From assembly GCA_003344405.1 (NCBI GenBank), contig NOWV01000121.1, positions 124,001 to 188,000 on the forward strand: a DNA stretch of 64,000 nt. The letters run 5' to 3'. Position numbers and translations under genes: made by a program. Shown piece after piece: positions 17,530 through 54,591 of this stretch; the first letter of the stretch is position 1, and each line of letters starts with the position of its first letter. The stretch comes from Trichoplax sp. H2. Its lineage: Eukaryota. The notes below the pieces were generated by a model. The model saw only the letters and a program-made list of their open reading frames with translations, ran no database searches and was not told the origin of the DNA.

Positions 17530-18617
17530 AAATCATCCCTTATTCAAATGTTTCAATATTTACCACTGTTAGTATCGATTACTCCGTATTTGCTTGGTGT
17601 ATTCTGATCGTAAACGTCCGTTTGCCCTGGTCTCTAGTAGCCATAGCAACGATGGTCTAGTTTTATGCACTGTGTTTAGTGTGAATTGTACTGTAGACTT
17701 TCTCCTTAAGTACTGTATGATTAAGGTGAAGAGCGACAGCCCATACAGCGCAGTAGAGAAATTGATGATTGATAGAGACATTGTATAGTCCACGTGTACA
17801 GTACAGTACAGTATACATTGTACTGTAGCCCGGATTGTTCGTAATGACGTACTGTACAATGGTACATACTCTACTGTCCGATACTACAGGTAGTAGTATA
17901 CAAGATACTATAGCTGTATAATACAGTAGTTCAGCCAAAGTGAGCCAGCAGACAGACTACCGCTACAGCTAGTGACTTGACTTGACCAGACCNNNNNNNN
18001 NNNNNNNNNNNNAAATCATCCCTTATTCAAATGTTTCAATATTTACCACTGTTAGTATCGATTACTCCGTATTTGCTTGGTGTATTCTGATCGTAAACGT
18101 CCGTTTGCCCTGGTCTCTAGTAGCCATAGCAACGATGGTCTAATTTTATGCACTGTGTTTAGTGTGAATTGTACTGTAGACTTTCTCCTTAAGTACAGTA
18201 CTGTATGATTAAGGTTAAGAGCGATAGCCCATACAGTGCAGTAGAGAAATTGATGATTGATAGAGACATTGTATAGTCCACGTGTACAGTACAGTACAGT
18301 ACAGCGTGTATGGGAAGTTTTTGGAGATATAAATGTGTATTTCTATGAAACTGGGTGCTTACATTTCGATTATTTAACAATACCTGTACTGTACTGTACT
18401 GTACAGTACTGTACAGTATAGTACAGTATACAGTACATTGTACTGTAGCCCGGATTGTTCGTAATGACGTACTGTACAGTACAATGGTACATACTCTACT
18501 GTCCGATACTACAGGTAGTAGTATACAAGATACTATAGCTGTATAATACAGTAGTTCAGCCAAAGTGAGCCAGCAGACAGACTACCGCTACAGCTAGTGA
18601 CTTGACTTGACCAGACC
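17530..18617. repeat. Near-identical direct duplication (17530-17992 vs 18013-18617) flanking a 20-N gap; probably two uncollapsed haplotypes
   Basis: Both copies run from aaatcatcccttattc to cttgaccagacc. They differ by SNPs, two 5-bp indels and an ~130-bp indel. Confidence 0.85.
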
Positions 18618-18765
18618 GAGTACTGTACTGTAGATCTTGTATCAGAGGGTATGTACTCAGTCGGGACTACTTATTCCTAGGTCTTGTACCTATTTGAGTA
18701 CAGGCGGCGCCCACCTTGACGGGTACCATGCTTAGTACTGTACTGTACAGTGTACAGTACCTGCA
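17685..18765. promoter_or_regulatory. TACTG/CAGTA pentamer array in the divergent MYCBPAP / Sel1-A upstream region
   Basis: Dense gtacagtacag and ctgtactgtac tracts between two head-to-head genes. Function is inferred from position only. Confidence 0.5.
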
Positions 18766-19029
18766 GAGCTGCCATCGAGGACATCCAGCTTCAAAGGGCA
18801 ATTTCGAGGCTGGACGATTTCATCTTGGTGATCATTCTGTTTAAAACTACGTCGATTAATTGGATCTGATGTAAGTAATCTTGATAGCTTTCTTTCCTAT
18901 AGCGATTGTTGTTTATACACATAGTTAGATTGTGTAAGTACGTTAGTGTGCAGGTGCTATTTATTGTTTAACATCAGCAAGTAAAACAATCGACGTACTC
19001 AATTATACTTGTATTATAGACAGTACATT

Positions 19030-20580
19030 ATGATGGATGCAAGCCAGCCAGGCAAATTAGAGGATTACCAACGATTACTTTTGCAACCTTTCCTGTCCAA
19101 GAGATTGGAAAATGAGCTATATAATAAATTGATGAACTATTGTGAGAAGGAACGCGATTCCCATAGTTTATTTCAGCTAGGTTGCCTATATCAACAAGGT
19201 CTCGGCAAGTGCGAAAAGGATTTACATAAAGCTAAGCAGTTACTTGATAATGCAGCTAGACTGGGTCATGCTAGAGCTATGTACAATCTCTGTCAGCTTT
19301 ATGGAAGCCAACCATCTGCTCAATTTGCCAATGTTGTTAGTGAAAGTGAATTAATTGATATCAAAGTACATTGGTATATAGAATCTTCCTCTCAGGCTCT
19401 AGTCTATTCTAACTCTGGAATCGAGTTATGGAGTAATTATAATGCTTCAGTAGCTTGGCGTAAGGCTGTTATGGCAGAAAGGGCACGTTTGCTAGATAGA
19501 ATTTCCAAGAAAGATTACCAAGATATTCTCCAATTAGGCAAACTCATGAATCAGGTCAGTTACATTGCCCTACAACTAAGTACAGATGATAGCGGCTATA
19601 AGACTGCAATAGACGGCTTGGAATCGGCATGTCGTCTTGGTAGTGCTGATGCCTATTGGAATCTGGCTGCATTAGTATACCACAATGGTCTTGGTGTAAA
19701 CAAAGATGAGGAAAAAAAACTTCAACTCATGTATCAAGCAGCTGATAGCAACCATGTTAGAGCTCAATTTTGGTTAGGAGAGTATCTATTTTCATCATTA
19801 GTTGGTATGGAAGAACAGTGTACAAAGGCTTTGAAGTATATGAAGCAATCATTGCAATATCCTTTTGCTAGTACCCTATTCTGGATTGGCTATGGTCATT
19901 TGTTAGGTACCGGTGTAAGTCAAAATTATGCCCTTGCAGTACAATACTTTCAACTTGCTGCTGTTTCCTCCGATTACCTATTTGGCATCGGAAATAGTTC
20001 AGCTTGTAGTTGGTTGGCTTTTATGTATACCAAGGGGCTAGGTATGACAATAGACTTTACGATGGCGTCTCATTATTACGCTATGGCAGCAAAATCAGGA
20101 AATAAGCATTCATTTAATGATTTAGCCAAACTAATAGAAAAAAGGAAAATTTCTTGTTGCGAGTTAGATATCGCGATTAAATTATACAGCATAGGTGCTG
20201 GGGAGAACGTGGAAGATACGTCGTCTTATTATGCCAGACTTAGACTTGGAAAAATATACTCGAACAAACGCTATCATAAAATTTACAATCAAGAGAAAGC
20301 TACTGAGTACTTTACTCAAGCATTACACTTACTGAAATCGTCTGTTTGTAAGGATACACGTTCCTATCGTTACTATCACTTGGGAATCATTTACGAAAAT
20401 GGATATAATACTGATGTAGATTATTCTCAAGCAGCTAAATATTATTCATTGGCGAAAGAAGCAGCTGCTAAGGTTTATGATATATTAGATAGATATTACG
20501 GAAAGAAGGCCGAAAAAAGACTTACTAAAATTATGAATTTAACGCTAGCAAAAAAAGAAAGTAAACAAACAACAGTTTAA
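19030..20580 (+). CDS. Sel1-like repeat (SLR/TPR) protein A, single coding exon, ~516 aa
   Basis: Long ORF with repeated SLR motifs: LFQLGCLYQQGLG..KDLHKA, AMYNL, AQFWLG, LGTGVSQNYALAVQYF, LGIIYENGYNTDVDYSQAAKYY. First ATG is at 19030, after a putative 5'UTR intron 18871-19019. Confidence 0.9.
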   Translation: MMDASQPGKLEDYQRLLLQPFLSKRLENELYNKLMNYCEKERDSHSLFQLGCLYQQGLGKCEKDLHKAKQLLDNAARLGHARAMYNLCQLYGSQPSAQFANVVSESELIDIKVHWYIESSSQALVYSNSGIELWSNYNASVAWRKAVMAERARLLDRISKKDYQDILQLGKLMNQVSYIALQLSTDDSGYKTAIDGLESACRLGSADAYWNLAALVYHNGLGVNKDEEKKLQLMYQAADSNHVRAQFWLGEYLFSSLVGMEEQCTKALKYMKQSLQYPFASTLFWIGYGHLLGTGVSQNYALAVQYFQLAAVSSDYLFGIGNSSACSWLAFMYTKGLGMTIDFTMASHYYAMAAKSGNKHSFNDLAKLIEKRKISCCELDIAIKLYSIGAGENVEDTSSYYARLRLGKIYSNKRYHKIYNQEKATEYFTQALHLLKSSVCKDTRSYRYYHLGIIYENGYNTDVDYSQAAKYYSLAKEAAAKVYDILDRYYGKKAEKRLTKIMNLTLAKKESKQTTV

Positions 20581-20889
20581 AACACTAAAGATAAATCATA
20601 AATTTATAAAATACTGTAAAAAGATCGATACTTGGACGATACATAGAAATATTACGATTGAACATTTTTGATTTTCTTTATTCAATTTACTTATTTATAT
20701 GCGTAGAATGAAATGTAATATCTTTTATATACTTCAAATACCCACATTGTTGACACTACACTGAAGGGGTGTCAACTACTTATGCAAAATATAGTAAAAT
20801 ATTGCAGGCGCAAGGTATATATATATACATCAGGGATAGATCTTATTGTCATTTGTTAATAAAACTTTCTCCGGAACCCTTTATAGTTC

Positions 20890-23800: not shown

Positions 23801-26513
23801 TATAACATTTTAATCTATGGAAATTATGGGTATCTTACAACTATCCTGTACGGAAGTCACGATTCCTAAGTATATCGAAGCACCATTCTTCGTAGTTAAA
23901 ATCCAGCAGGGTTTTGCAATCGTTTGCCCATTTCTGACAGGGCTAGTATGAGATAACGCAAAATACGATAACAGTTGCCTGCAACAATAGCAAGAAATAC
24001 CACGATGACATACCATTTCGATTTTCTCATATCTAACTAGTAATACAAGAAAAAAAATAAATTTGAACTAACGTTCTTACCTAGCGCTAGCATATGGTAG
24101 TGGGATCATAGAATCAGCTGCAATATTCCATGAAACAACTTCATGTAAGTTATCTGAGTGAAATGTCTAGACAGTTATAAAAATAAAAAATAAAAATATT
24201 TTAAAAATGGTTTCGTCAATAACACGGTATTTCTTATCAGTAACATCACGAAAATATTAACTGTTCTAAAGTATAAGGCGTTAACTTCATTTCTAAGCTT
24301 AGATACTTAACCTCGAAAATATTGATCATTTGGCCAAGGGCATCATTTGCTGGACCTATGCGAACGAATCTTTCTGCCGTCAGGGTCAATGAGACAGGAT
24401 ATTCTTCACCGTCTTCTTCTTCGAAGGACGTAGATTCGTAACTGTTATTGAACTGATTTTGATCATTTACTGACGATACTTCATCTTGAATTAATGCCTA
24501 AATTGAAAATAAATATTACATTATAATAAGCGCAACACTATGCAACATTCTCTATTGATACCTATCAGTCTATCACTCTCAGTAATGCCATTCTTGAGAT
24601 AATTTAATTAAAGTACATATATCGCACTATAAGCCAAAAATTTACTGTAAGTACTAACAGTTCGCGAATATCCAGTTACGAGATAAAATCCACTTTTACC
24701 CGAAGCCAAATTAACTTTAGGATGGTTTACACCCTCTGGTATCATATAAACGTTGCAAATTTCCTTTAAAGTTAAAATAATTAAATTAACCGAGAATATT
24801 ATTATAATTCGTTTTGACATTATCTACAGGTATACTATACAGTATATATAAGTTATACCTAGGAAGAAAAAAGAAATAATTATCACAAAATTTATATCTG
24901 ACGTATCGAAATATCCTGTTACTCTAATAGTACATATATATATATATACTGCTCCAGGCGAGGACTTCTAAGAGGAAATTTGTAAAAAGTCTCTGACTGT
25001 AATTATACAGACATTCTGGCATATCAGTGCCATATAGGATGTTTATACAATACAAAGTATAAGTTAAATAATCTAGCTTAGCAATAGCCGTTGTAAACCG
25101 GATACAGTCAAATTATGGTCCACTCAGATGAATGGATAGTATTTCTATCTATTACATCGTACAATATTATTTATTAAGTAATGTAGAGTTGCAGACTTCA
25201 TGCAATGTTAAACGGTTATACGTTCCGCGTACGATACAAATATTCTAATACCTTACACATTTACATGTAGTAAAATGCTGGATGAGAGGAAAATTTTCTA
25301 ATTACATCATGCATCAGCAAGTTCACTATTCTCGTAAACATAAGGTCGAAAACGCTATTTTTGCGCCCTGTAACACTAGTAAGAATTGAGAGAGTTGCCC
25401 AACTCCTAGCCTGCTATTTCAATATTACTGAATAATGTAGCATTGAGGCGTTAACTACTCGATTTCTGCAATAGTTGGCGGATTTAATTTTATCTCACCT
25501 TTGTCTTTCCACTAGCTATCCTTTTACAGTACGATGCATGCATTTACAACTGCACATGCATAACTAATTGATCACTTTATTGGGGCTGATAAATCCTACG
25601 TTATATATTACAATAAATATTATATTTTATAAGATCCTAGTGTACTTATAGTGAATAATAAATAATGTATTGGGCGAAGCTAATTTGGAATGAAGATTCA
25701 GCGAAATTAAATATCGTTGTGCGCACGAAGCAGTTATGTCTATGCTAGTTGACTGCTGTACCTTGAATTGGGTCGGGAAAATCTGAAAGCTATTTCTCGA
25801 CTCATGTCGTAAATCTTCGGCTTTCAAACTACCTCAGAAAAAAATAAAAGCAATTTAGTCATGGATTGTATAGCACACAGTTTAGTAAAATTGCTTCTTT
25901 ATATTCTTCTTCTTCTTTTAATACGAACATCGCAAAGTGCTTCTGTATACGCTTACTCCTATCTTACACAATTACAGAAGCTAAAACAACTATACAGTCT
26001 CATAGTACTGCATTTAAGTAAATATCCTTCAGTTGTATGTATGGCACACAGTTTAGTAAAATTGCTTCTTTATATCCTTCTTCTTTTAATACGAACATCG
26101 CAAAGTGCATCTGTATACGCTTACTCCTATCTTACACAATTACAGAAGCTAAAAAAAAAACTATACTGTCTCACAGTACTGCATTTGAGTAATGTAAATA
26201 TCCTTCAGTTGTATGTATGGCACACAGTTTAGTAAAATTGCTTCTTTATATCCTTCTTCTTTTAATACGAACATCGTAAAGTGCTTCTGTATACGCTTAC
26301 TCCTCCTATCTTACACAATTACAGAAGCTAAAAAAACTATACTGTCTCACAGTACTGCATTTGAGTAATGTAAATATCCTTCAGTAGTATGTATTTAGTC
26401 CTACTATAATAAAATGTAAGCAAGATTTGAGAAATGAAATGATAGACCATCATTTTATTGTACCTTATAAGAAATTGAAGAAAGTTCTCAGAATCGCTTT
26501 GCAACCTTTCCAT
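20890..26513 (-). CDS. ZWILCH: Kinetochore RZZ-complex subunit Zwilch, multi-exon
   Basis: First exon MERLQSDSENFLQFLI (26464-26513) resembles the vertebrate Zwilch N-terminus. Internal PRSDFDFVDKIWIILK, CNNLNELTEAV..KLADGRLLPQ and PIDCLVEIGLDKLRKDYLNY match Zwilch motifs. TGA at 20890-20892. Exons at 24.8-25.9 kb are less certain. Confidence 0.85.
25868..26395. repeat. Tandem repeat, 3 units of ~175 bp, in ZWILCH intron 1
   Basis: The unit gcacacagtttagtaaaattgcttc...cttcagt recurs at about 25870, 26040 and 26218. Confidence 0.9.
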
Positions 26514-26664
26514 TTTACATCACCCGCCAAATTTTGTACTTCAATACTGATCGTATAAATTGTATTGTTTCCATACGGCAATAACAAGTCGAAGAGCAAT
26601 TGCGACAGCGGCTGCGCGACTTAAAGGGACCTTGAATGAAAACAGTGCCAGCACACTGATTACA

Positions 26665-26960
26665 GACTGTACAGTACAGTACTAGAGCCTCTAAGGATCT
26701 GCACTGTACTGTACACTGTACCGTACAGTGTACAATACTAAGCTGTACAGTGTACAATACTAAGCTATACTAGTGTACTGTATTGGTTCGATTTGTAATT
26801 ACTGTACAGTCAGTACCTTACTGTATAAATTCCCTTATACTGTACAGTATTGAGAAAATTCATAGTTACGCAACTGTACTGTACCTTATAATTCTCTTAT
26901 ATTGAGAAATTCATAATTACATACAGTAGGTCCTTTCTATACTGTACAGTGTACAGTACA
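26665..26960. promoter_or_regulatory. TACTG/CAGTA array upstream of ZWILCH
   Basis: Dense ctgtacagtacag-type tracts 150-450 bp upstream of the ATG. Confidence 0.5.
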
Positions 26961-27851
26961 TATTTTCCTGTAATGGCGTAGCCCCAAATTTGTTTCTTTT
27001 GAATGATATGGTACTTTTTCAATTTGCGCAGTGCACATGGATACTACTGTAAATAATGCAGTCTTATGTACAAAGTGGTCTTTATTCGATACTACGCTAT
27101 AGTTGTTCGATTTGTAATTAGAATGCGTTGTAAGTGTCAACGGCGTACGTACAGTATATAAGCCGCCGCTTTTCATTACAGTAAAGAGAGAGAGTAGGAG
27201 TTAGTTGTTACTTTGACAATAACTTCAACCACGCCTACAATCTCTTGTCTCCCATGTTGATGGAGAGCAGGACGAAGCTTCAACACGGTTGTTAGTATTA
27301 ACTCTCCATAGCAATAACACAACAGTTTTCATGGTCTCCGGACCAGACTCTGCTGAGAATAGAAATGATGAACAACTTTGAACTCGGGTTTGCAACCCGT
27401 CCCAATTTTGTTACTCGGCTATGAAAACCCGGGTGCAATCCTTAGTCACAACTAGTCCACTTTATTATTGAAAGTTTGAGTCATTCACTGAGCATTATAC
27501 AGTAAATTAAAATTCTGTAGTTGGATTGTATTATTTTACAAAAGGTTAAAATTTTACAACTACAATATTTTTTATTTTATAGTAATTTGGTAAGGAGAAA
27601 TAATTGAAAGATATTACATCATTTTTGGACATTTTCAAGTATTGCATTCCATTCATATTGCTAGGTATACAATATTAACTAGACCCTTTCTATTTGAAAG
27701 TTCCGTATGCTTGAAGACGGTTTAATCAGATATCATGATTTCTCGAACAACATACAGTACGACATCTCATACATAGAGATATCTCTAAATATGCCTGGAG
27801 TTCGGTGGCGTACGGGGGGAAAAAATAGGTTTTATCGTTGTGAAGAATAAA

Positions 27852-28185
27852 AAAAGTACGATAATCATCTGTTAGCGTTATACTTGTACATTGGTGCGGC
27901 ATAACATTAGAAGATGAGAATCAACGTACAAGACACCAACGATAGTTATATACAGTATAAGAAAGTGTCTTTCTGCCGGTGGTATGATAGTTGTAATAAA
28001 TGATAAAAGTACGATAATGATAATTATATTTATTTAAGAAAGTGTCTTTCTGTCGGTGGTATGGTAGTTGTAATAAATGATAAAAGTACGATAATCATCT
28101 GTTAGCGTTGTACTTGTAAATTGGTACAGCATAATATTGGGAGATGAGAATCAACGTACAAGACACCAATAATAATTACAGTATA
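27852..28185. repeat. Interleaved local duplications (~105-bp and ~60-bp units)
   Basis: aaaagtacgataatcatctgttagcg...caagacaccaa occurs at ~27852 and ~28082; aagaaagtgtctttctg..ggtggtatg..tagttgtaataaatgat occurs at ~27959 and ~28035. Confidence 0.85.
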
Positions 28186-31123: not shown

Positions 31124-32749
31124 TTAGTCATCGATGTTAACGTGAATATCCTTATTGCTAGAATCGAAACAATCAGGTTTGACAGTTTTCAATTTTTCCA
31201 ATCTTTTTCTGGCTTTCTTACTGTAGTAGATTGGAATATATCTATAGTATTTTTCAGCTTGACTTATAGTAATTTGGTAAAAATCGGAAGCCTTAACATG
31301 ATCCATTTCAATATTACCGTAACCATGTTGATGAATAATGCCTAAATGATAGCAAACACGTGGTGACTTATACTGCAATTGATCCTCAGCAATAGTTAGA
31401 AAATTTTGCAAGTATTCAAGATGTTTGTCTTTGTCTACTTGCAAGTGCTGATAATGATTCATGTATAATTTACCCAAGCGGTAATTGGCATAACACGATG
31501 CTTCTAAATTAGTCGATTGGCATATCATGTCATAAAATGGAATAGCGTCTTTTTTCTCCTTTGATTTAATTTTATCTTTCTCTATTAATTTGGCCAAACG
31601 AATACAGGCTTCATCATGTTGTAATTCTGCGGCAGTTGCTAAGTAATGGCTAGCAGTCGTATAATTTACTTCAACGCCCCAACCTTTTTCATGCATAAAT
31701 CCTAAACATATACTGGCTGACTTGCATCCAATACCACCTACATAATCAGCCGAAACAACAGCTTGCTCAAAATATTCTATCGCTGTCGTATAGTTCTGTG
31801 GTGTATTACCCATGCCACACAAATGAAATAAACCTAGATAGTATAATGTGCTAGAAAATGAATACTTTGACGATTTGAGTAAATAATCATAAGCCTTTTT
31901 ACATTCTCTTTCTTTGCCTACTTCTTCATTATAATGATTGTCTATGGCTAGCCGAAATTGCGCTTCATGATGACCAGCGACGGCAGCTTTATATGTGAAC
32001 TCATAGTCACGAACATGTGGTGTGCTATTATCGGTGGAGTTATTAATATGGCTGTTATTATTTTGGCGTGCATCATTGTTATTGCTATCGTCGATTAAAT
32101 TAGCGATATTCCAAAACGCAGCGGCGTTAGATAGACGACCGGCCATAACAAAACACTGTTCAGCGTCAAGATCGTGATCGACCGGTCCTAACACGTACGT
32201 TAAATAACCCAATTGATTATAAAATTCACCTAATTCGTCTGCATGACTATAACTTGATTTTTTAACTCGATCAATGGACTGGTGTACAACATATTGCACT
32301 CTTTCTTGCCATTTTCTTGTTGTTTGGTATAATTTCCAGAATTCTTCGGCAGCGTTGCAGTAATTTTTTGATTGTGACGCAGATTTAAGATAATTGTCAA
32401 CCTGCATTTTTAACAAATCTTTACGATTGATATTTTTACTGCTCCTTATAGCTTCATCGGTATGAATATTGCATAATAAATATTGAGCTGCAGGGTGATT
32501 TTCCTTGGCTGCAACTTCGTAATACTCAAGGGCTTTGTAAAGATCTTTTTTAGTATTTCCAAAACCATAATGGTTAATTCGTCCTAGTTCAAAATTTGAA
32601 TGGGGATCATCGTCTTTATTGATATTTTTTTGATAGATCTTTTTGGCTTTTTCATACAATAACTGCTGAATTTCAGTTGATATAAATTCATCAAAGTAAT
32701 TTATAGATTCACTTTTTTGAGAAACTTTGCGTGTCAACGGTATTCCCAT
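31124..32749 (-). CDS. Sel1-like repeat protein B, single coding exon, 541 aa, paralog of 19030-20580
   Basis: SLR motifs FELGRINHYGFG..KDLYKALEYY, AQYLL, AQFRLA, LYYLGLFHLCGMG..QNYTTAIEYF, LGIIHQHGYG. Collinear with paralog A along its length. Confidence 0.9.
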   Translation of the reverse strand: MGIPLTRKVSQKSESINYFDEFISTEIQQLLYEKAKKIYQKNINKDDDPHSNFELGRINHYGFGNTKKDLYKALEYYEVAAKENHPAAQYLLCNIHTDEAIRSSKNINRKDLLKMQVDNYLKSASQSKNYCNAAEEFWKLYQTTRKWQERVQYVVHQSIDRVKKSSYSHADELGEFYNQLGYLTYVLGPVDHDLDAEQCFVMAGRLSNAAAFWNIANLIDDSNNNDARQNNNSHINNSTDNSTPHVRDYEFTYKAAVAGHHEAQFRLAIDNHYNEEVGKERECKKAYDYLLKSSKYSFSSTLYYLGLFHLCGMGNTPQNYTTAIEYFEQAVVSADYVGGIGCKSASICLGFMHEKGWGVEVNYTTASHYLATAAELQHDEACIRLAKLIEKDKIKSKEKKDAIPFYDMICQSTNLEASCYANYRLGKLYMNHYQHLQVDKDKHLEYLQNFLTIAEDQLQYKSPRVCYHLGIIHQHGYGNIEMDHVKASDFYQITISQAEKYYRYIPIYYSKKARKRLEKLKTVKPDCFDSSNKDIHVNIDD

Positions 32750-38000: not shown

Positions 38001-39113
38001 CATACGCGTCCATAAAGAAGTGACATTTTAATAAGACAGTTTGTGTACAGTAGAAAGTTATACGAATTGTAATCCTATGCGTATGGTACATGATCTTATG
38101 AATTCGGATGCCAACATAAAGAATGCACGAATTTTGCTTTTTAGACAATTCTACGTATGCTAAAAGTGTAGTACACATTAATTAATTAAAGTGCATAAAT
38201 CTGGTAACAGGATATGCAATACGCCGTATTAACGAGAATATTACGCGTATATGAGAACAAATGACAAATCGCGTTACAACGTCACAACTGTGCTACCTTG
38301 CATTAAGATTTTTACTGTATTTCGTTGCAAATTTTTAATGATGGAGTTTATGATTATAATGTATGAATGAAATACAAGTTTGTTAAATCCTAACAATGCA
38401 TTGCACTCTATACAGTACAGTAAAAATATCATGTATACTGCCAATTTTTTATAGTGCAGGTCATATCGTTAATGCTTTTATCATGCATAACATATATACT
38501 GTCAATGTTTGGATTTACGCTTCTGTTCGATTACGTTGTCCAACCTAGACGATCCCCTTGTGGTGATAGGTAAAATTTCAAAAACGCTCAACCGATTCTG
38601 TTCCTGTCTCCTAAATTAATGACAATGTATCAATAGCAACATGAGATTTTTAAAGAGAAATTTTAACATTTGGCAACTCGTAGATTTGGGTATAAGATTA
38701 TGATTGGGTGAATATGTATAAGGACTTAATAATAAAGTCATAATATGTTTTATAAATCATGATATCACTGATATTAGAAATGTATACTGCATTTGCTGTA
38801 TTGTGTACGGTTACTGGATTGGAATTGACTTTACAATCCAATTGCAATTATTCCAGTGATATAGTACAACAAAATATTAAGATACAAACGTGTAGGTGAT
38901 TAGGTAAAAAAATTGAATTTATTGCAATCGACTGCTTGTTACGACTTACCAAGGACTACTAGTAGATTTGCCTTCTAGTAGTCCTTGGATTTGCCTATAG
39001 AGGTAATCTTCGATAACTGTAAGCTTATTAGGGTTTAGTGTACTGTACCTTCTCTGCTCCGATAAAGGGCACATCCTAGTGCATTTGCCTTTCAGAATTT
39101 CTTCGTCCATCAT
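35015..39113 (-). CDS. SAC3D1: SAC3/GANP-domain protein (SAC3D1-like), multi-exon
   Basis: KGKCTRMCPLSEQRRRQEQNRLSVFE, AVKEYSRPAAGKE, RPVEVLLKTIEYL, IYSFVSNRIRAIKQDLTIQ, NRAEFESYYILYNLG, NYVRFF. The short length favours SAC3D1 over GANP/MCM3AP. TGA at 35015-35017. Confidence 0.85.
38949..38988. repeat. Hairpin with a perfect 14-bp stem in SAC3D1 intron 1
   Basis: CCAAGGACTACTAG-N12-CTAGTAGTCCTTGG. Confidence 0.9.
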
Positions 39114-39318: not shown

Positions 39319-39487
39319 TTACAGTACAATAGTACAGTACTATACAGTACTGTACACTACATTGTACAGTATACCACAGTACATCGTACTGTATGGTACA
39401 GTACAGTACAATACGGTACTGTTACCCGGTCTCTTCTCTCTTTGGTAGTCTCTACTATTATCGTAGCCATAGTAGTACAGTACTGCA
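39319..39487. promoter_or_regulatory. TACTG/CAGTA array in the SAC3D1 / MTFMT divergent region
   Basis: Dense pentamer tracts in the ~700-bp head-to-head gap. Confidence 0.55.
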
Positions 39488-39817: not shown

Positions 39818-42726
39818 ATGCAAGTTAAGCACAATCGAGTGCTATCTGTTCTCTTATTTGGAAACGATGCTTTCTCAACGATAGTTCTCGATGCTGTACA
39901 TTTAAATAGGTGAAGTTACATTGCGAAATGATCAAATTATTACAGTTTTGATTCGAAATTTGAATTAGATCCTAGCCTCTATGTGCATTGTCAGTTTATT
40001 TACTGTATTAATTATATTATTATAGATACCTATGCAGTATACTGTATAGACGTATAGACGTAGATGGATGTCATATAAAGTATGCACTGTACAGTATTAA
40101 TTCAATTGATTTTACTTGTACAGTTTAAATCGATGTAAGTATTCCTATCAACGTATCGTCGATAAAGTCGAAATAGTATACTCGGGTTTTAAGGTTAGTA
40201 ACGACTTCGCTAAAATAGACTACAAACTGTATCTTAAGCTCATAACTAAATTAGCTTGAAACTGTCTTTCAACAGAATAGCAAGAAATCATCTTCAGTAT
40301 TGAAATACGCTCGAAATAATGGCCTTGTTGCGCATAATTATAACGACTACAGCGATATGATTCCTAGTAACAGGGAATTCTGTGACCTCAGGTTGATAAA
40401 ATTAAAATTAAAAAAGACATTTTTATACTTTTTAGCAGTTTACGATTTTAACGATTACTCAACTTCGATTGCATTCAATTACAGTATAATTAAAAAATGC
40501 TTTTTGCCTCTTTATTGAGTGCAACAGGAATCGTTTCGATGTTGGTATCGTAGTTTCATTTGGACACCTACTTAGCAAAAGATGGATAGATTTATTTGTA
40601 CGGTATGGTATACGTGTTGCAATATTATTCTGTGCTGATATACTATTTATGCATTTTTGGTTACCATTTCTACTTTCTACTGTTAATAATGAAACAGTTG
40701 CAGTACTGTACAGTCTCGTATATAGTCATTTCTCATCGGTTTCAATCTACACTACACTGTTAATTCGACGATGTTAGGTATTAAAAAAAATATACACTTA
40801 CGGCTTACAATCAGTGAAATTTTAGACAGATATTAATATTAACAGGAGGTAACATACGATTATGATATTGAGTAAAAATTACCACCCATTATTACCTACC
40901 GTCGCATATTTATTGTATTAAATTTGCAAAATTTCCTGAGGTTGCATAAGGTCTATATTTGGGCTTATTGATGCCTTAAAGTGTGCATGTTTGACACTAA
41001 TACGGTACTATAAAAAATGTTTAACTTTCTTTTACACATATATCCAGTAGATGATCATATACTATAGATTAGTTTTACCAGAGTAGCATGCTAAAGGCGC
41101 CAAGACTCGTTATTTGCAGTTTGATGTGGAGATTAGTATATATTTAAGCTTACTAGTCTACTGTGTTAATTGATATATCGAGATCACTTTTAATTTCCGA
41201 TGCAAAAAATAAATTGTAATTGTAATTTGTAGTTAATAACCTGATATACTTATATTGGCTCAATGTATTGCAGAGGGGCAATTAATGTTCATCCTTCGTT
41301 ACTCCCAAGATGGAGAGGAGCGTCTCCAATTCAATTCGCTTTGTTGCATGGTGACAATGTGACCGGCGTGACGATTGCTGATGTTTTACCAGATAAGTTA
41401 GTGAACGAAATATTTTAATATTTCAAACTTTGTCATGAATATAAATACTAAATATCTGTATTGAAACAGATACGACAGAGGGCGTATATTAATGCAGGAA
41501 AGTTTAAAGGTATAAGCATATATTGGAGATGTCATTCTGTTTGGCATTTCTGTAATGAGATTTTTGGATTCTTTATTAGTAACTTTTAAACTAACTGCAC
41601 ATAACAGTAGATAAGATACTTCAACATGTCTCATTAATAGTTGTATAAGAATTAGTGTAACAATAATGCCATGGTGATTGGGATCTTTCTACACTTTTGC
41701 AGATAAATGATAGGGAAACGTACATCCAGCTTCATAATCGTCTAGCTGACCTAAGTTCAAATCTAGTATGCTATCGGCAAAATGCCCCATACTATTTATT
41801 TGTACATTTACCTCTAGCGTAAGGATATAATTAATGCAAAATTTTGGTATATTGTTTATAGTTATTACGAGCATTGTTAGATTTAGCGAATTTGCATCGG
41901 AAAGCCCAGAAGCAGAATGAAAGGAACGTAACTTATGGTAAAGCGATCATTATACAGTAAACTGTAAATTTGTAAACAACGTGTGAATAGCATTAGTCTT
42001 ATGTAATCGTTCGGAAATAAGCCTACAGCTTATTACAAGTTCATACATTAATCTTATACTTAAAAGCAAGTAAAATTAATCAAAATATGGATTGGATTAA
42101 TTGGTCTGAACATAGTAATAAATTCATAAATAGAATGTGGAGAGCCCTTGGTTACCAGGTATATCTCTAGTTCGTTGTTTGCGAAATTATTTTCGTAAAT
42201 ATTGTAGGACACACTTGCTACAAAATTTTCTTAATAAGCTATATTATTTACCTACTTAGAAGGGCTTAAAAACAACATGGAGGGGAACCGTTGTGAAATT
42301 AATAGATTTTTGTTATCTTGAGAATTATGAAGCTAATTTAAGTGGTAAGATTACTATATTACTGCTCATTCCACACAACGGAGGACGATTGCCTCAAACT
42401 GCTACTTACTAACTTTTAGATATAAACCATACGAACATGAAGCATGGATTCGTTAAATATGATGAGGATTTAAACGCAATTATTATTAAATGCAAGGTAA
42501 ATATTCATATTTAAATCTGGACTAAAAGTATTTCAAGATTATTGACGTTATTAGAAGTTAATTTGAAGAAAATTAATTTGATTTGCAGGATGGTCTAGTG
42601 GCTTTTAGGAAAGTTCAGTTTGCATGTCGAAAAGTAATTACTGCTTTGGATTTTTATAATGCTTATTTAACACGAATAGAAGAATCGAAACGATATTTTG
42701 GTGCACCTGGCAATAGGCCCACTTAA
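39818..42726 (+). CDS. MTFMT: Mitochondrial methionyl-tRNA formyltransferase; true start may lie in an upstream exon
   Basis: [66 protein letters not shown] and C-terminal [14 protein letters not shown] at 42724-42726. Confidence 0.93.
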
Positions 42727-43537
42727 AGCTAATATCACCATTACGGGAAGTTAATAATTTATTTCATAATTGAAACCAGAATAACTTTTTATCGTAACTT
42801 GACGGCATCAAAGATAATTTTTTTAGCGACATTCTTGTTAATGTTTATAGGCATTGTACAAGAGTTTGATGTAAGCATATTTTGATAACTGTTCTCAGAT
42901 GTAGAGTTATTATTGGTTAAACACCACTCATTAGTTGCTACCGTATAGTTTAAAATAAAATAAAAATAACTTACAGTAGTTGTAGATTTTTTTATACGGT
43001 TATTGTTCTTAAGGTGATATCAGTAGGAGAGAGTCCGCTACATTGTACATACTTTATCGTCTATCACTAAGTTAACTTAGCGATACACACTTACCTCTAA
43101 AAATTTTCTGTATCTGTAGCATGATGTTACATAAGATAAACATAGGCTGACAAATAATAAACAGAACACGGCAACCGTACTCTGTGCTATCGATACAATG
43201 TATAAATACTTCATAATATCTAATAATATGGGATTACCAGTAATGACAATAATAATGGATAAAGGATAACATTGGTAAAGTACCGTATTTTCAACAGTTA
43301 CATACCTATAGATACGCCATAGCCGACGTATTACAAGCTTATCGGCATTATACGTATTAATACATGGAAAAACCCAATCCCAAGAATATTAAGAACGGTT
43401 AAATCATAGAACAGAAAGCTACTTAGAAATAAACTACCGGTAACTATAAACTGCTATCGCATTACTAATATTGCAAGTAGATAGCGTTTTAATTTATCCG
43501 TAAAATAATCAGACGAAAACTTCACTCATTACATATT

Positions 43538-46500
43538 CTATATTGCTACATTTGAATTTCCTTTATCATTTTCTAATGCATATCTTTTAAAGATGATATG
43601 CCTTTTCCAATACAGCGTAACAGCTACAACTATAGCTACGAAAGCCACAATCGACATGATGATAGCTGCAATATCACCACCTAAATTAAGATAATACGGC
43701 GATATTTAAATTTAGTGAGCTATCCTGTTACAGTATTTGAAGTCAAGCTTCTACCAACACGTTAGAGATTAATCTAAAAATATATAAAACTTACCTGATA
43801 ATGGGCTGCTTTGCCCGATAGGTTGATTCGTTGCCCCTCCTACGTTCGAAGTTTTTGTCATCATAGTTGTACCACCCGGTGGAATTTCGTCTTAAATGAA
43901 ATGTAGTAAACATATTATCACAATTGTGTCTGACGCTAGCATGATTATTAAATTGCATTTTAATAAAGTATCAATTTTATGTACGACTGCCAAGAAATTC
44001 TATTTTCGCAAGATAATTTGTTGGGTATTACAAAAGAGACTTTCGACGATTGAATTCGATACATAACAGATTTACTGCAGTATAGTAGCGTAAAGTTGCT
44101 TCGGAAGCTAGTAATTGTCCCATAATATCCTTGAATGCATGGACTTATATATAACCTATTTTTACTGTGCATTGTACAGTAGTACTGTATATGCGATCAC
44201 AGTAATCATAAATATAGTTTAGCGTATGATAAGCCTGAAAGGCTCTCATAAGCATTAAGAGAGTGCACGCATCATCGTGTTATCATCAGATATAACAATT
44301 TCGAAAAATGTAGTATAGCATTACAACAATGTAATCAGTTAATATGGACCGTACATAATCAATAGCAAGTGATCAGCCAGCTAAGCAGTTTTTTGAGAGT
44401 ATATATACGAAGTTAGAACACATGTAAGTAATAGTGCTTACCACCACAGCGTGTAGTGTCAACATTTATGACTCTGTTATTGAGGATATTGAACGGTGGT
44501 GGCACTATAGGCGAGGGCACATCAAGCTTCGGTATAATACCAGCCTAGAAAATATATCACAGATCCACAAGAGATAAGCTAATTTTTACAGCATAATCTG
44601 TACAATGTACAACTATGACATTTTAATATTGATTTTAAACATTTTTCGTATATTGCAATTATGCTATGTGATACCATGGAATGGTGCATTAGACAGTTAA
44701 CCTGAAAGAGTCACTCAATATCCACTTAAACGATAAGTACTAATAATAATTGGCATTTACTGAACGCTTGACGTTTTTGGTCAAATCTTAGTACTTTGGT
44801 AAGTTAACGTGTATACTACTGACAGTAAGTAAATCAAGAGCAAGTTTAGCATACGGTAATTATGTAAGCAAAGCGATGCAAACAAATTTGAACGAGAATA
44901 TTGCATGGACGTTTCATGAAAATTGTTCAAATCTTTGTTTTAAAAGCTAGCATTTGCGAATCTAGTTAGCTATTAGAGGTGGCATCAATATTTTAAAATT
45001 AGCGGGCAAATAGTAAACTTTTTGTACTAATAACGACCATACAAATCAAATGCCATTAAGTATCAATTACCGTAACGGTTACTTTTCCAGGTGATCGCGT
45101 CATACTTATTTTCCCAAACAATTTGACAGGAACTGTCACGTTAATAGTAGGTATGACGAAGGAAATCTTAGTTATGAAAAATTCATCTGCGTGCTTTATA
45201 TTTCTGATAATGGTAATATTCTCAGCTGGATAAGCTGCCTGTAAAAGAATTTAGATTAAAGAAAACAATTTACTACATTCTAAGACTCTTTAAGTGAGTC
45301 AATATTCGATTAATAGTTCTGAAATACACTTTAGCAGGGTGTTAACAGCAGTTTACGTTTAATCATAAATGAATAGTAAACAACCATTTATAACTAACAC
45401 TATTGCTAGTAAATATGTAAAATTTTATCATAAAATTAAGGCGAATCTGATATGTCACCAAGTTAAAAAACAACATCTTCACGTAACGGTAACTAGCATA
45501 TCATCAATGTAAGAGTAAAAGGTGATTTAGCTAAATATCAGACATTTAAAGTTGTAGAAAAAGCATGACATTGCTGATTCGAGTATATATAGTAATTGCA
45601 TGCATTATAACTGAAATCTTGCATTACTGTACCGATGACAGTGACCAGTACTAAACATAACCTCTAGTATACTATCAGATATCTCTCCCATTGCTGTATA
45701 TAAATTTGCCGTAAGTAAAAGGCTATCATAAGGGTAGTCAGGTAAAATTTCTCATAATTAAATATGATTACTGAAACCATGAAGATAGGATAAGACACAA
45801 TCGTTATAAAATTCTAATTTGCTGATTTATATACCGTAATATTTGCTGTAACCGGTTTGGTGCAGTAGTTCAAATTGAAAGAGAATTGCATATGGCGTCC
45901 GTAAATTTTTCCACTGCAGTTAAACCCATTACAATTTTGATATTCATAACACTGCAAAGTTGTCTTCTTGGAAGGGTCAAGTCCAGGTATCGGCACCAAG
46001 TTGAGAGGTATCTGATCTAGCCGTTGCTTTAAGAAGTTTATCAGATCGGCTAGACTCTGGCACTCTGGATTGACTGTAGGGGCTGAAGGATGGATAAATT
46101 AAGAAATTTTTTAGGATCGTGAGCAAAATATGATATAAAATATGAAATTAGATCAATAAGGGTACAGACTGATTTCGTTTAGTTATCCTAAAATGAGATC
46201 GAACGCACCTACTTTCTAAATGAACACCAATCCACAAATGATAGTATAGTAGTCTATATTATTCATGTAGAATTGATGATCTCTATACTATATTAATTGT
46301 GCTATAGTTACGTATCAATAACTTGGTACAGCAATTAACTCATATTTTAACTTAATTCTGGTCAATGATAGGAGAGAAGAAACTGTATAGTACTTCAAAA
46401 ACGGCGGTCTCTGAAATTCACACGAATCGAGTCTGAAATTTGTCTCACTATTCACTTGCTGCATTGCTGCATTGCCCAGTAATAATCAAAACGAGGATGC

Positions 46501-47648
46501 TGTAATATTTAGTAGAAGTTTTTCACAGTCGACAGACTACTAACGCTTTATTATAACTCAGGGGCTAGCCGTGCTTTATTCATTTTAGGGGAATTGATAG
46601 CGTATATCAAGAATGATTTGAATCGTGTAATATTTTAATTTCCCGAAATTGAATTAATTGATGGAAAAATTTCAATACTGAAGATCTGTGACAGACTAAA
46701 ACCAGGAATAAGAAGCCTTGGCAGTCTGACTGGTAGTGATGGTGATCGTGCCAGGTACAATACTGTACGAGCTCAAATCGAGAGCGAATGAGTAATACGG
46801 TACTGTACTGTAGAAGAGCAGCTACGGTCACGCTTTACGGACTACAGTATATACTGTACAGTACAGTATATTGTAGCGTACTGTATACTGTACACTGTAC
46901 AGTACAGTCTGTACTGAACTAACAGCAACAAAATTCAATAGAGTCTTTATTTATTTAATATGCGTATATTTACTAATTATTATTATCAGTGCTATGACGT
47001 ATATAATATCACGTCTGACTGCGATACCATTTTACAGTAAAAAGGATAGTGTTTTTGGTCAGTAAAAAAAGGAACAGAGAGGTCATTTTTGATTACCTCG
47101 ATGACTGTAGTTACTTGAGATAGATATAAGAAATTAGATGATTTTAATCATTATTGTAATATACTTTCAGAAAAATGAATGGTTTTTCTATACAGTTTAT
47201 ACTAAATGATGATAATCATTATGATAGCTATTTGAAGTTAGGACAAATTCGATGTTGTAAAAGTGATGATTAAACCGGCATAAGTACAGTACACACAGTA
47301 TTATATTGCTGGTCTGCTGAGAACAGTAAGAAATAATCTCAACGGATTACAGTAACGAAATGTTATACTTTACTTTCCTCAGAGAAATCTTTGGTTCAAG
47401 TAGTACTACGATCAGATTTTATAGTATTCGCAAATCAACTTTTAAATAAACGAATGAAAACATTGAAAATTTCACAGATACTATACTGTGCAAAGTACAG
47501 TATCGTAATTTACATATTCAGTAATTCTGAATAGAATAATTAATTTCTATATATATTACTGTATATCAATGTATCATCACTTACTTGCACATTCGCCATG
47601 ATATACGTAGAAGGTATAAAAAATTAGGAATAGGGATAGAAACTTCAT
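43538..47648 (-). CDS. Uncharacterised type-I single-pass membrane protein with a Cys-rich ectodomain (6 exons)
   Basis: Signal-peptide exon 47585-47648 (MKFLSLFLIFYTFYVYHGECA|gtaagt, phase 1) splices in phase to exons at ~45836-46084, 45072-45238, 44442-44544, 43795-43890 and 43538-43680. TM segment IAAIIMSIVAFVAIVVAVTLYW is followed by KRH and a short tail. Confidence 0.8.
46755..46916. promoter_or_regulatory. TACTG/CAGTA array inside intron 1 of the membrane-protein gene
   Basis: Dense pentamer tracts with no called gene start next to them. Confidence 0.35.
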
Positions 47649-47814
47649 TTCTGATAGGTTCAGCTGCTCGCCGCTTAGATTAGTAGATCCTTTTCGTCCG
47701 ACTAACAATAAAGTTCAATTGGCGTGTTCCATCAACGACCACACACAAAAAATGGGTACAGTATGTTCAGTAGTTGCTTATTAAAAAAGGGGTCGCTGTT
47801 TCTGTTTACAGCAC

Positions 47815-48652
47815 GTACAGTACCGTTGAGTCCTGCAGTAAAAATACGCCGAACCGGCTGTACTGTACTGTACTGTACTGTACTCTGTACTGAATAGTGT
47901 ACTGTACAGTACATTGTACAGTCTACAATGTACAGTCCACAATGTACAGTCTACTGTACTGTACTGTACTGTACTGTACCGGTAGGCCCAGCCATACTGT
48001 AATAACCCCGATTACTCAGATACTGTACACTGTACAGTACAGTACAGTACTCAGCGTAAATAAAGTAGCTTCAAAGATGATACAGTACATTATACTGTAC
48101 GGTCACAGTACACATACTGTACTGTACTGTAATTATGGTACAGTAGAGCAATGCGCACAAATTAAAAGGCGGTGATTCCAATGGACTACAGGCTGACTGT
48201 CTACAGCACTAAATAATGATGCTGTAAGAAAATAAGAATAAAGATCTCTAGAGGCAGTAGTATAAGAAAAATATATCTTATCTTTTACCTCTACTTTAGT
48301 AAAATCATACTCAAAATGACCTCTTTTCCAAAAATTGAAGGAATAGGGGATAAGAGTGATGGCTTTAGTGTCACATTTTGGGACGGAGACGACTCTACAG
48401 TGTACAGTGCACAGTACTGTACAGTACACTGGTAATTAGTGCACAGCAATGGTGACATCATTTTTTAATACTGCACAAGCTACAGTACGCAATCTACAGT
48501 ACTGTACTGTCGATTCTGTACTGTAGAGCTTCTAAATACTGTAAGTATGCTTTGCCTCTCTACAGTACAGTACTGTACAGTACTGTACAACTTTTCTCAC
48601 ATTATCACCGCAATGTCGGTACTGTAGGGATAGACTGTACTAAGTACAGTAT
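47815..48652. promoter_or_regulatory. Two TACTG/CAGTA arrays (47815-48135, 48395-48652) in the membrane-protein / PIP5K1 divergent region
   Basis: (CTGTA)n and (TACAG)n runs, one block next to each head-to-head gene. Confidence 0.55.
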
Positions 48653-48855
48653 GCACATTTATTGATGATTAGCCAAGGGTGCCTTTAAAGGGATACCTTT
48701 TGCGGAAAGATATCCTACCGATAGTATCGAGAACTGTCGTCTTGCACGCTTCGTTTCATGTTTGCCAAGTGTGATTTATTATAGTTACACTTGGCATTGC
48801 CACCATCAGCAGAAAGGAAAGATCCGTTACGGTAGCGATCCGCTGTTAATTTAGT

Positions 48856-51800: not shown

Positions 51801-52675
51801 AAGAAACTAGAGCATACATATAAATCAATTCTTCACGATGGTGTAAGTACGAGATATTATCGTTGAACTACGGTAGTTATTTGGAAGTTTATTACAACAC
51901 TGAAAGGGTAATTAATCGACTAATCAATGATATAAAATCTCACTAACGGCACTATTATAGGATGCGGTATCAGTCACTAGTCCAGGATTTTACAGTGAAC
52001 GATTTGTTAATTTTTGTAAAAGTAGTGTATTTACGAAACGAATTGGTAAGAAGCTGAGATATTATTACCTATAAAGAAATGTAGTATAAATCAACGGGTT
52101 AACCATTAGTGGATTTTTATTTAGTTGCAAAATCGCAGCAAAAGAGAAGGTTGTTGCGTCCACGAAAGTCACTTGCTGATGATACTGTAACAAGTGATAG
52201 ATTAGATAAGTCTTTCAATGGACAGGTAAGTATGAGACCGTTAGAATAATTGTTTTGGAATTTATCATAACTAGCAGTAAGTACCTGTTATGTTTGATGG
52301 AAAATTGCAATTTTAATTCCCGAAATTTTACAGGAAAGCCTTATGGAAGATCTTCACGTATTTAAAAATGCGGATAACTGTCGAACGAATGAAGCCGTGA
52401 ATAAGGACTCTTCAACATCCACATCTATGAAGGAGATAGTTGTAGATGTCCATAACTTTGGCATTATCGATAGTAAAACAATATTGTCCAGTAGGTAGGT
52501 CGTTAAATAATGTAGCTTAAGTATCATAGACTAGTTAGTAAGTATATATCTATATTGATAATTCTGTATAGCTAATAGCTCTGTTCTGTAATATAATAAT
52601 TTTAGCCCTCAAAGTGGAAGAAGGAAAACAAAATCTGTCTATAATGATGACCAGAAAACTGAGACGATCGTCTAA
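48856..52675 (+). CDS. PIP5K1: Type I phosphatidylinositol-4-phosphate 5-kinase, multi-exon
   Basis: [128 protein letters not shown] at 52673-52675. Confidence 0.96.
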
Positions 52676-53601
52676 ACATGATTACTGGCAAATTTATAAT
52701 TATTTCATGAAAGAATGTATACTTTTCTTTGTAAAGAATTTAGAATTAATTGGAATAAGGGTTCTAAGTTGTGTGACTTTATTTCTATATAGCCATTTGA
52801 AATAAACTATATCTGTATATTTTCATAGCATTGCAATTAAGGAAAGCTGTTATAATGTTCCCTACAATTTATCAGTGTGAGCTTATTATTTGTACTACAG
52901 TAAAACTTTTATGTCAAATTTTCAGTAAGAGAGCAATGGTATGGTAACATGACGTATTAAATTCAAATTTTATTTGGATAATCAGATTGCGTGCTTCGCA
53001 CCGCATTTATTATGCTAAGAACTTCTCCACCAATGACTACTGTAGACTTGATTGGCAAGGATTTTCTAATCGAAATTTTTTGCATTGTAATCCGAAAACT
53101 ATGCTAAATTGCCTTCTGTGTATATTCTATATTCTATATACTGTAGCATTGTAAATCTTGAATTACATAAAAATTTAATTTACACTATCATTTATGGATG
53201 AGAGCTATTTTCTTTTTGACTTTAGCCAATAGGTATCGTAAAACAATTTAAATTAATTTGGCACCATGCAAGTCTTCAAATATACTGTACGTGTAGTTTT
53301 TTAATCAGTGGGCAGGGTTTAGCAATTACGAGCTATTATACTGTACTGTATCATGATAATGACAACAGCAGATGATAAACTGAAGTCCTATTAGAAAGAA
53401 AGAGTTTATGATTGTGTATTCGTATTATTTGGGTATAGCATGGGCAATGGAATAGAAAAGTATTGATGATATGCTACAATTAATGTGCAGTACTGTACTG
53501 TACTTTATGATAATGTGAAATGCGATCGGATATGAAAGCTGAGCCCAGATCATCTGTGCTTCCGCTTAATTCTAGTATTAGAATCTTTCTTATTAATTAG
53601 G

Positions 53602-53767
53602 ACGGGGGACCGCGCGAACGCAAGTCCCCCACTACCAGAAATTGTACGCTCGAGTCTCCCCTATTTGGGGAGATCGCAGGGGTCAGCCTAACCGAAGTGC
53701 AATGGAAAGGCCTCACCCTGGGGGAACACCCTTCTTGATCAGCGTTACCCCCGCGTCAGGTAAGTAT
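53602..53767 (-). ncRNA. RNU1: U1 spliceosomal snRNA
   Basis: Reverse strand starts ATACTTACCTG and has loop I GATCAAGAAG (U1-70K site), loop II ATTGCACTTCG (U1A site), Sm site AATTTCTGG and a terminal stem-loop with a TTCG tetraloop; ~166 nt. Confidence 0.97.
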
Positions 53768-53810
53768 GAGTTTTAGACGTTCAAAGCTGTATTATATACA
53801 AGTCAATAAT

Positions 53811-53829
53811 CCCTTCAATTATGGGTGTC
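53811..53829 (-). promoter_or_regulatory. Putative snRNA proximal sequence element (PSE)
   Basis: GACACCCATAATTGAAGGG lies at about -62 to -44 of U1, the expected position, and resembles metazoan PSEs. Confidence 0.55.
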
Positions 53830-53930
53830 AAGTTTTGAATTTTTAATGAAATAATTTGTATTATTGTTATTAATATTATTATCATATGTGCATTATACTG
53901 TAGTACAGTACTGTATTGTACTGTATTATT

Positions 53931-54086
53931 GAGCTTTCAAGCATGCTCAGTTATGATACATGATTCTTTCTTGAACTGTGCGTACTGAACAGTCAACACT
54001 ACCATTATTATGGAGCTTTCAAGCATGCTCAGTTATGATGTATGATTCTTTCTTGACTGTGCGTACTGAACAGTCAACACTACCAT
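53931..54086. repeat. Tandem duplication, 2 x ~75 bp, between U1 and ACP6
   Basis: gagctttcaagcatgctcagttatgat...cagtcaacactaccat at 53931 and 54013. Confidence 0.9.
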
Positions 54087-54102
54087 GATGAATCTTGTGT
54101 AG

Positions 54103-54299
54103 CATGGATAGGGACTGCAGTATTCAAATAAAATGAAATATAACCCCATTTTTCTACCATCTACTTCTCTCTCTCTTACTTTACTGTATAATCCAGGATT
54201 ATTTAGTAAGAGAGAGGGAGACGGAGGAGGGGGATTTGTAGAAAAAGGGTCACGTTTTTACTTGAGTACTGTAGTCCAATGCCATGGACTACAGTACTC
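54103..54299. repeat. Long imperfect inverted repeat (fold-back / MITE-like) with an overlapping perfect 15-bp stem
   Basis: Arm pairs: ggactgcagtattcaa/ttgagtactgtagtcc, tttttctac/gtagaaaaa, ctctctcttact/agtaagagagag. Also gagtactgtagtcca-N6-tggactacagtactc at 54264-54299. Confidence 0.75.
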
Positions 54300-54591
54300 C
54301 AATTTACCGGTAAATTGAGTAGTCTGTGAATGCGTATAGTATAGTACTGTACTGTACAAAGTAAGCTCTCTATTGAATAATTGTACAGTACCTGTACTGG
54401 AACAGTACTAGAAATTCGAAGATTAACTAACTACTATCATAACAGTATTCTTGTAGCATTGGCCACTATCGGTGCTGAGTTAGCGGAATCTACGATTCTA
54501 TTCCTAATCGCTATTAGGTAATCCCATTCCTGCAAAATTGACTGTCGTCGCAGGAGAATAGATTAATTAACCAACAGCAGAATCCAGTATT

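Follow-up and report, generated by a model that had tools for sequence, protein, structure and literature searches.

This study concerns a 64,000-nucleotide stretch of Trichoplax sp. H2 DNA (assembly GCA_003344405.1, contig NOWV01000121.1, forward-strand positions 124,001 to 188,000), called here the window, and the dense pentamer arrays of mixed orientation that it carries. The building block of these arrays is the palindromic 7-mer TACWGTA (TACAGTA or TACTGTA), and each unit is one small insertion at a TA dinucleotide, by which TA becomes TA-CAG-TA or TA-CTG-TA. On balance, we favor, as slightly the better side of an even question, the reading that the arrays are stacked excision scars of Tc1/mariner-type transposons, left in open chromatin, lengthened by slippage, and perhaps later co-opted. 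The evidence suggests that the arrays are a record of open DNA and not a designed promoter code.

The arrays are the (ACAGT)n microsatellite that Wang et al. (2010) described close to promoters, ACAGT being a rotation of TACAG. It has been reported that ACAGT makes up 78% of Trichoplax pentanucleotide repeats, that 54% of these are found in the 1 kb preceding a gene, and that they are enriched at translation and kinase genes (PMC2871265). The window shares with that description the genus, the upstream location, and the housekeeping bias: it is Trichoplax DNA in which tandem ACAGT is enriched within 1 kb upstream of genes. The accessible text of Wang et al. counts perfect repeats and suggests a transcription-factor site; mixed orientation, a TACWGTA unit, or insertion at TA do not figure in it (PMC2871265). 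The promoter association was thus already published in 2010, and the new part is the polarized insertion test. Literature searches found no printed footprint explanation for the Trichoplax repeats; in the available part of one further paper, the motif letters occur only in a primer (PMC6067683).

Polarized Insertions in a Dispersed Repeat

The insertions were observed in an unclassified dispersed repeat unrelated to the arrays, about 500 bp long when whole and with a sharp right end, of which genome G000 holds at least 40 copies of about 80% identity. A truncated copy adjoins the array at ZWILCH (27112-27325, plus strand); within this copy, a de novo insertion has turned TA into TACAGTA (27150-27156). 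Each of 38-40 copies was aligned to five real copies from array-poor sites, and an insertion was kept if at least four of these agreed. The near-identical copies L079 and L110 and the partial copy L096b were left out of the count, and for L081b, from a tandem pair, only its two private events were included. Eleven of the 14 five-base insertions are exact TA to TA-CWG-TA changes; together with one 15-base triple, they have the form TA+(CWGTA)n. The microhomology at these 12 motif insertions is 2 bases in four, 3 in seven, and 4 in one, and since a duplication needs 5, none of the 12 is a tandem duplication. The locus of the L096 insertion (2.3 kb) contains no other TACWGTA, and the copy nearest to the L098 insertion is 800 bp away. 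Seven insertions fall in 2781 bp of array-rich copies versus 2 in 6121 bp of array-poor ones (p=0.006). In the window, the allelic 5-bp indels at 48481 (TA/TACAGTA) and 53283 (TA/TACTGTA), detected in 20 kb and unpolarized, are also nonduplicative and hint at recent activity.

These observations bear directly on the explanation advanced in the original prediction and by Wang et al. (2010), namely, a slippage microsatellite kept by selection, whether through a multivalent factor that binds TACWGTA or through nucleosome exclusion, in the manner of a CpG island. Some allelic differences are indeed duplications, as slippage would produce. However, slippage cannot create 12 polarized nonduplicative insertions or the near-random orientation described below. 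Instead of tandem-duplicated new units in uniform runs, 0 of the 12 events were duplications, and 214 of 489 neighboring units pointed in opposite directions.

Structure of the Repeat Unit

The grammar of the unit was derived from a sample of 664 kb. Among the 64 words of the form TA-xyz-TA, CAG/CTG is enriched 11.3-fold and CCG/CGG (TACSGTA) 3.5-fold, the others reaching at most 1.7-fold. The tracts had been described earlier as rich in GTAC, TGTACA, and AGTACT palindromes. Such palindromes are present there, but they fall near background once TACWGTA is masked and are thus junction products. GTAC itself was tried as the core unit and rejected, as this palindrome is barely enriched outside TACWGTA (4438 copies vs. 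3897 expected).

The orientation of neighboring units is nearly a coin toss, 275 of the 489 pairs being the same and 214 opposite. Isolated copies number 512 of 1812, and 318 of these 512 have neither a G before nor a C after them; no 5-bp duplication can produce such copies. The distances between copies peak at 5, 10, 15, and 20 bp and fade by about 30 bp into a flat background. The proposal that the 5-bp period has meaning as half a helical turn was not borne out, as no longer-range helical phasing is seen; the period is fully explained by a 3-base insert plus the duplicated TA. The strong folding of the tracts (hairpin potential z −7.2 against shuffles) is likewise the automatic outcome of a self-complementary unit. 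None of the mechanisms put forward in the original prediction (multivalent factor binding, nucleosome exclusion, or cruciform formation) gains support from the present data. Single-mismatch variants of TACWGTA are in excess; most of them are transitions, and they affect every position, as sequence decay would, a pattern that also speaks against a microsatellite kept by selection.

A 9-letter class, TACASTGTA, is enriched 11-fold, whereas its slippage twin TACACAGTA is not enriched (106 vs. 16). The sole polarized 7-bp insertion (L078/L079) comes close to being a duplication as well, and therefore nothing is concluded from TACASTGTA about the ends of an element. Outside the arrays, TACGCGTA (6.8-fold), TACCGGTA (5.3-fold), and TACGAGTA/TACTCGTA (3.0-fold) are enriched and possibly represent a second, Minos-like scar class or binding sites.

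Proposed Excision Scars and the Host-Repair Rival

In Sleeping Beauty, a transposon of the Tc1 family, excision leaves two canonical footprints, TACAGTA and TACTGTA, produced by 3-base overhangs whose central mismatch is ambiguous (10.1101/659086). The likeness to the Trichoplax unit comprises identical 7-mers, the TA target, the random A/T center, a net insertion of 5 bp, and independence of a local template. In Trichoplax, TA is duplicated around CAG or CTG at plain TA sites, and both centers are similarly frequent. A scar of the Sleeping Beauty type explains why the units are anchored at TA, grow in 5-bp steps, have a random center, and lack a local template. The two systems differ in that the Sleeping Beauty footprints are known from engineered single events (10.1101/659086), whereas in Trichoplax thousands of units are stacked in promoters, noncanonical scars are not enriched, and no donor was found.

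In the proposed mechanism, a Tc1/mariner-type transposon ending in CAG...CTG would insert at TA and duplicate it. Its excision would leave 3-base overhangs, the central A:A mismatch of which could be resolved either way, and every scar would supply a new TA target. Scars in coding sequence would be purged as frameshifts, and those in accessible noncoding DNA would build up, the transposition enzymes presumably acting in open chromatin. The accumulation is seen chiefly at promoters of broadly expressed genes and at tRNA flanks, and accessibility would be its cause. Slippage would then extend the runs, as it did in some of the allelic differences. An array would be, to begin with, a record of germline-open chromatin, perhaps co-opted later as a binding or insulating element, which the published chromatin associations allow.

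A number of findings weigh against this origin. No element with TA-CAG inverted ends was seen in about 0.85 Mb (<1% of the genome) or around 11 Tc1/mariner/pogo transposase loci, where clear inverted repeats are absent. Donor searches (PF13358, PF01498, PF03184, PF10551, and tblastn-type) gave only relics or genes without terminal inverted repeats (TIRs). The loci with a Tc1-like or DD37D catalytic core are broken (a stop in C323, a frameshift in C808), and the other transposase loci have degenerate catalytic motifs or the DNA-binding part only. The accessible text of Wang et al. reports no active DNA transposon in Trichoplax (PMC2871265). The only Tc1-linked inverted ends seen, at locus L115, read TA-CGG. 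Noncanonical scars (TACATA, TATGTA, and others) constitute over half of those in a Sleeping Beauty assay (10.1101/659086); here TACATA, TATGTA, and TACGTA are not enriched, and TA-xy-TA words reach at most 1.4-fold over a high background that lowers sensitivity. Same-orientation neighbors are in slight excess (56%, p=0.007). In the dispersed repeat, the effect of context is modest by rank (Spearman p=0.058, the array-rich threshold having been set by eye), and other insertions are likewise 1.7-fold up in array-rich copies. A second, younger repeat family gave 0 motif insertions in 30 copies, a weak null, as these were top BLAST matches, biased against indels and from array-poor sites. Finally, the 5-bp differences at 39039 and across a gap duplicate (described below) fit simple slippage.

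Several of the loci mentioned deserve a brief description. The younger family (L120-L149, e.g., G000:C186:221121-221600) is 443 bp long, with 490 candidates about 95% identical; its ends (TG...CA) and short direct repeats possibly mark a solo long terminal repeat or a small TIR element. L115 (1501-2467; G000:C1) is a single-copy Tc1-derived gene with the DNA-binding part only. In front of it are two degenerate inverted arms with the TA-CGG at their inner ends; these ends could relate to the minor TACSGTA class. The relic L152 (G000:C808:56600-59950) is a DD37D mariner-type transposase in which the catalytic triad is intact and the reading frame is broken by one frameshift. The full-length DD37D transposases P0036 and P0037, which have an intact triad and 78% mutual identity, are closest to this relic. 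Five other transposase-derived frames (L072, L116, L117, L118, and L151; IS630/Tc1-like and pogo/CENP-B-like) are intact and TIR-less, several with altered catalytic motifs, and are candidate domesticated DNA-binding proteins.

Host repair remains a serious rival because no donor element was found and noncanonical scars are not enriched. Repair, for example, by polymerase-theta-like templated insertion or template switching, would re-prime on TA and copy CWGTA from other units, making the arrays autocatalytic. The greater frequency of insertions close to existing arrays agrees with this, as do the one or two extra bases of microhomology at 8 of the 12 events and the failure to find a source transposon in the 0.85 Mb and at the 11 transposase loci. 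However, the L096 and L098 events arose without a local template, the extra microhomology is no more frequent than expected from the proportion of TA sites in the repeat that offer it (46%, p=0.16), and only one of the 64 TA-xyz-TA word pairs is strongly amplified. Overall, we judge host repair to be unlikely as the source of the arrays, though far from negligible.

A bolder variant of the scar reading is that a still-active writer, for example a mariner-type transposase that has been domesticated or a CAG-ended element that is short-lived, stamps TACWGTA into open placozoan promoters, and that the scar fields have been co-opted as three-dimensional promoter-hub anchors. The leads toward it are the nonduplicative allelic indels and the two full-length DD37D transposases, P0036 and P0037. 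This variant we consider decidedly improbable. If it were true, an animal would be marking its housekeeping promoters with a self-reinforcing transposition record.

Distribution in the Window

The window contains 202 copies of TACWGTA; over 100 dinucleotide shuffles, the count averages 17.9 and never exceeds 28. Its ten most over-represented 5-mers are TACAG/CTGTA and their rotations, and its top 7-mers are TACAGTA/TACTGTA. More than half of the copies (105 of 202) lie in 7.7 kb upstream (≤1 kb each) of 10 gene or RNA starts, at a density of 13.6/kb vs. 1.7/kb elsewhere in the window. Of 1280 circular shifts, 7 place as many copies there. The anchors used are within 3 bases of the starts given in the section on genes, or within 60 for the formyltransferase. 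The arrays noticed in the original prediction are real, as is their enrichment at gene starts.

With matches ≤150 bp apart joined into clusters, the largest arrays lie between divergent genes. An array of 23 matches (18172-18759) separates MYCBPAP (minus strand) from Sel1-A (plus), and one of 24 matches (47757-48145) separates a membrane-protein gene (minus) from PIP5K1. A further 14 matches (48415-48651) stand 0.2-0.45 kb upstream of the PIP5K1 ATG, possibly within the 5′ untranslated region (UTR), and include the site of the allelic indel at 48481. Nine matches (39320-39482) lie between SAC3D1 (minus) and an MTFMT-like formyltransferase gene (plus), also divergent, and 15 (26670-27183) upstream of ZWILCH (minus). 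Between the divergent U1 (minus) and ACP6-like (plus) genes, there are clusters of 4 (53896-53925) and 6 matches (54182-54390). A cluster of 8 matches (17689-17928) belongs to a duplicate copy left of a 20-N gap. This copy (17530-17992), which is probably allelic, repeats 18013-18620 on the other side of the gap, and part of the first array is consequently counted twice. Between the two copies there are 4 substitutions, and they are further distinguished by two 5-bp units and by a 132-bp segment with array units at its borders.

The single-exon gene Sel1-B (31124-32749, minus strand; Pfam Sel1) is, as had been noticed, a start without an array; 4 scattered TACWGTA occur in the 1 kb upstream, with no cluster. 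The statement that introns and 3′ gaps hold only short scattered copies was too strong, since an array of 11 matches (46761-47039) sits inside the first intron of the membrane-protein gene (0.6-0.9 kb past the start codon), and a looser cluster of 8 matches (52896-53502), with the allelic indel at 53283, occupies the convergent PIP5K1/U1 gap (8 in 0.9 kb, 8.7 per kb).

Distribution beyond the Window

The earlier claim that almost every gene 5′ end is marked by an array is true of this window, but it fails genome-wide. In 600 kb of other contigs, 32 arrays were found, from 22 in 200 kb down to 0 in 100 kb. No array was present upstream of genes for G protein-coupled receptors (GPCRs) in 8 regions, sampled from 147 GPCR matches, where TACWGTA occurs 3 times in 5.6 kb. 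Among Ras-family matches beginning at the N-terminus, 3 of 15 have a cluster of at least 8 copies within 1.5 kb upstream, a count from which 5′UTR introns may hide some clusters; when all 30 Ras loci are pooled, 117 copies lie upstream vs. 50 downstream. Long open reading frames carry the motif at background level (13 in 48.8 kb).

At tRNA genes, the flanks contain 45 copies in 5.4 kb upstream (8.3/kb) and 26 downstream (4.8/kb), for 18 of 50 genes, and 11 of the 18 have at least 3 copies in 600 bp. The presence of the motif on both sides of genes transcribed by RNA polymerase III fits open chromatin better than an RNA polymerase II promoter element. The same tRNA flanks, together with the intronic array, count against a microsatellite kept by selection; the strong promoter association found here and by Wang et al. 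(PMC2871265) counts for it.

The orientation of genes around the 32 arrays gave little. A strand test with splice words showed no outward bias, and its positive control in known genes failed (53 vs. 50). A 4-mer strand classifier, itself weak (25 of 37 blocks right), assigned 10 arrays as divergent, 8 as convergent, and 14 as tandem. When contigs of four sequencing runs were compared with the window, repeat matches dominated, and contig depth cannot rank accessibility.

Promoter Hubs and the Mutator Interpretation

A motif at loop anchors is enriched at placozoan housekeeping promoters; it marks the promoters of about one third of placozoan genes, mostly housekeeping, and its authors link it to TIRs of Mutator transposons (Kim et al. 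2025; PMC12221973). TACWGTA may be this motif, the letters of which are given only in figures (PMC12221973). In addition, Chimaera, a sequence model trained on T. adhaerens Micro-C data, recovers repeating ACAGT and ACGG motifs that are predictive of the pattern (PMC12817080). The ACGG motif would match the minor TACSGTA class (3.5-fold); this association is in silico only, and, in the available text, it is ACGG and not ACAGT that is connected with the transposon motif of Kim et al. (PMC12817080). Both reports lend support to a selected microsatellite. Taken with the insertion data, that account is quite unlikely as a whole, and it may be right on present function while wrong on origin. The original idea of a lineage-specific, orientation-independent promoter mark stands to the extent that the association is real and that a mark is compatible with these two studies (PMC12221973, PMC12817080); the tRNA flanks fit openness better.

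Vertebrate CpG islands are a sequence-visible, strand-symmetric mark of broadly active promoters and persist by escaping methylation-driven loss. The Trichoplax arrays differ in growing by insertion, and their CG counts are not notably raised.

If the hub motif is the same, the arrays would be, following Kim et al., the TIRs of Mutator transposons at promoters. In this regard, TIRs annotated as Mutator by EDTA hold the promoter-hub motif in four placozoans (PMC12221973), and 6 MuDR fragments are listed for Trichoplax (PMC2871265). However, the array-bearing segment at 47.7-48.7 kb shares with other loci essentially nothing but motif-rich stretches (at best, 74% over 217 bp), and no multicopy family emerged whose ends are homologous outside the simple motif. 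The search of G000 with PF10551 returned no transposase match of the Mutator-like element type, a result to be read as a lower bound. Naive calling of elements, by a 9-bp direct repeat plus a 12-bp inverted repeat, yields 272 pseudo-elements in the 664 kb, and 259 of these have both ends in array context, which is 6.4% of the DNA, often with several conflicting calls per array. Thus, arrays alone would trigger structural Mutator calls. Apparent target repeats of 9 bp, in the range of the expected 9-11-bp duplication, arise trivially inside arrays. The present tests do not support the assignment to Mutator for these arrays, which we regard as very improbable.

Genes of the Window

The window is placozoan DNA, since a 531-codon Sel1-repeat frame, Sel1-A (18985-20580), matches a Trichoplax adhaerens protein with 100% identity. 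The gene labels first given from the sequence are backed by Pfam matches at the expected places (PPIP5K2, MYCBPAP, Sel1 twice, Zwilch, SAC3_GANP, Formyl_trans_N, PIP5K, His_Phos_2, and fn3) and by an Rfam match (RF00003, 158 bits) to the U1 small nuclear RNA gene at 53603-53767 on the minus strand. Start codons were read from the sequence by the analyst, and those of MYCBPAP and the formyltransferase are uncertain. On the minus strand, they are ATG 16652 or 17252 for MYCBPAP, 26513 for ZWILCH, 39113 for SAC3D1, and 47648 for the membrane protein; on the plus strand, they are ATG 19030 for Sel1-A, 48856 for PIP5K1, and 54592 for the ACP6-like phosphatase (His_Phos_2). The first recognizable coding exon of the formyltransferase (plus strand; Formyl_trans_N) lies near 39850. 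As read from the sequence, exon 1 of the membrane-protein gene is coding at 47648-47585, in frame with an exon beginning near 46076, and a contig from an RNA run ends near 47743, by this start, which is a weak hint.

The C-terminal exons of the formyltransferase (plus strand) appear to overlap the long 3′ transcript end of the membrane-protein gene (minus strand) at 41600-42700; this 3′ end is covered by an RNA-run contig at 41603-43678. The exons were recognized by eye, from their resemblance. Recent tandem repeats occur in ZWILCH intron 1 (176 bp, three copies, 25867-26394) and upstream of U1 (82 bp, two copies, 53924-54086). The longest perfect palindrome of the window, of 28 bp (917-944), lies in a PPIP5K2 intron and is unrelated to the pentamer.

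Significance

Where the ACAGT repeat comes from and what it does have been open questions since 2010. The repeat may be the motif at the promoter-hub anchors of placozoans, which figure in debates over the time at which genome looping appeared in animals. Were the units scars, finding them at promoters would be at first a consequence of openness and not its cause, and the link to Mutator may be an annotation artifact. The density of the motif would then be a fossil map of the chromatin that was accessible in the germline.

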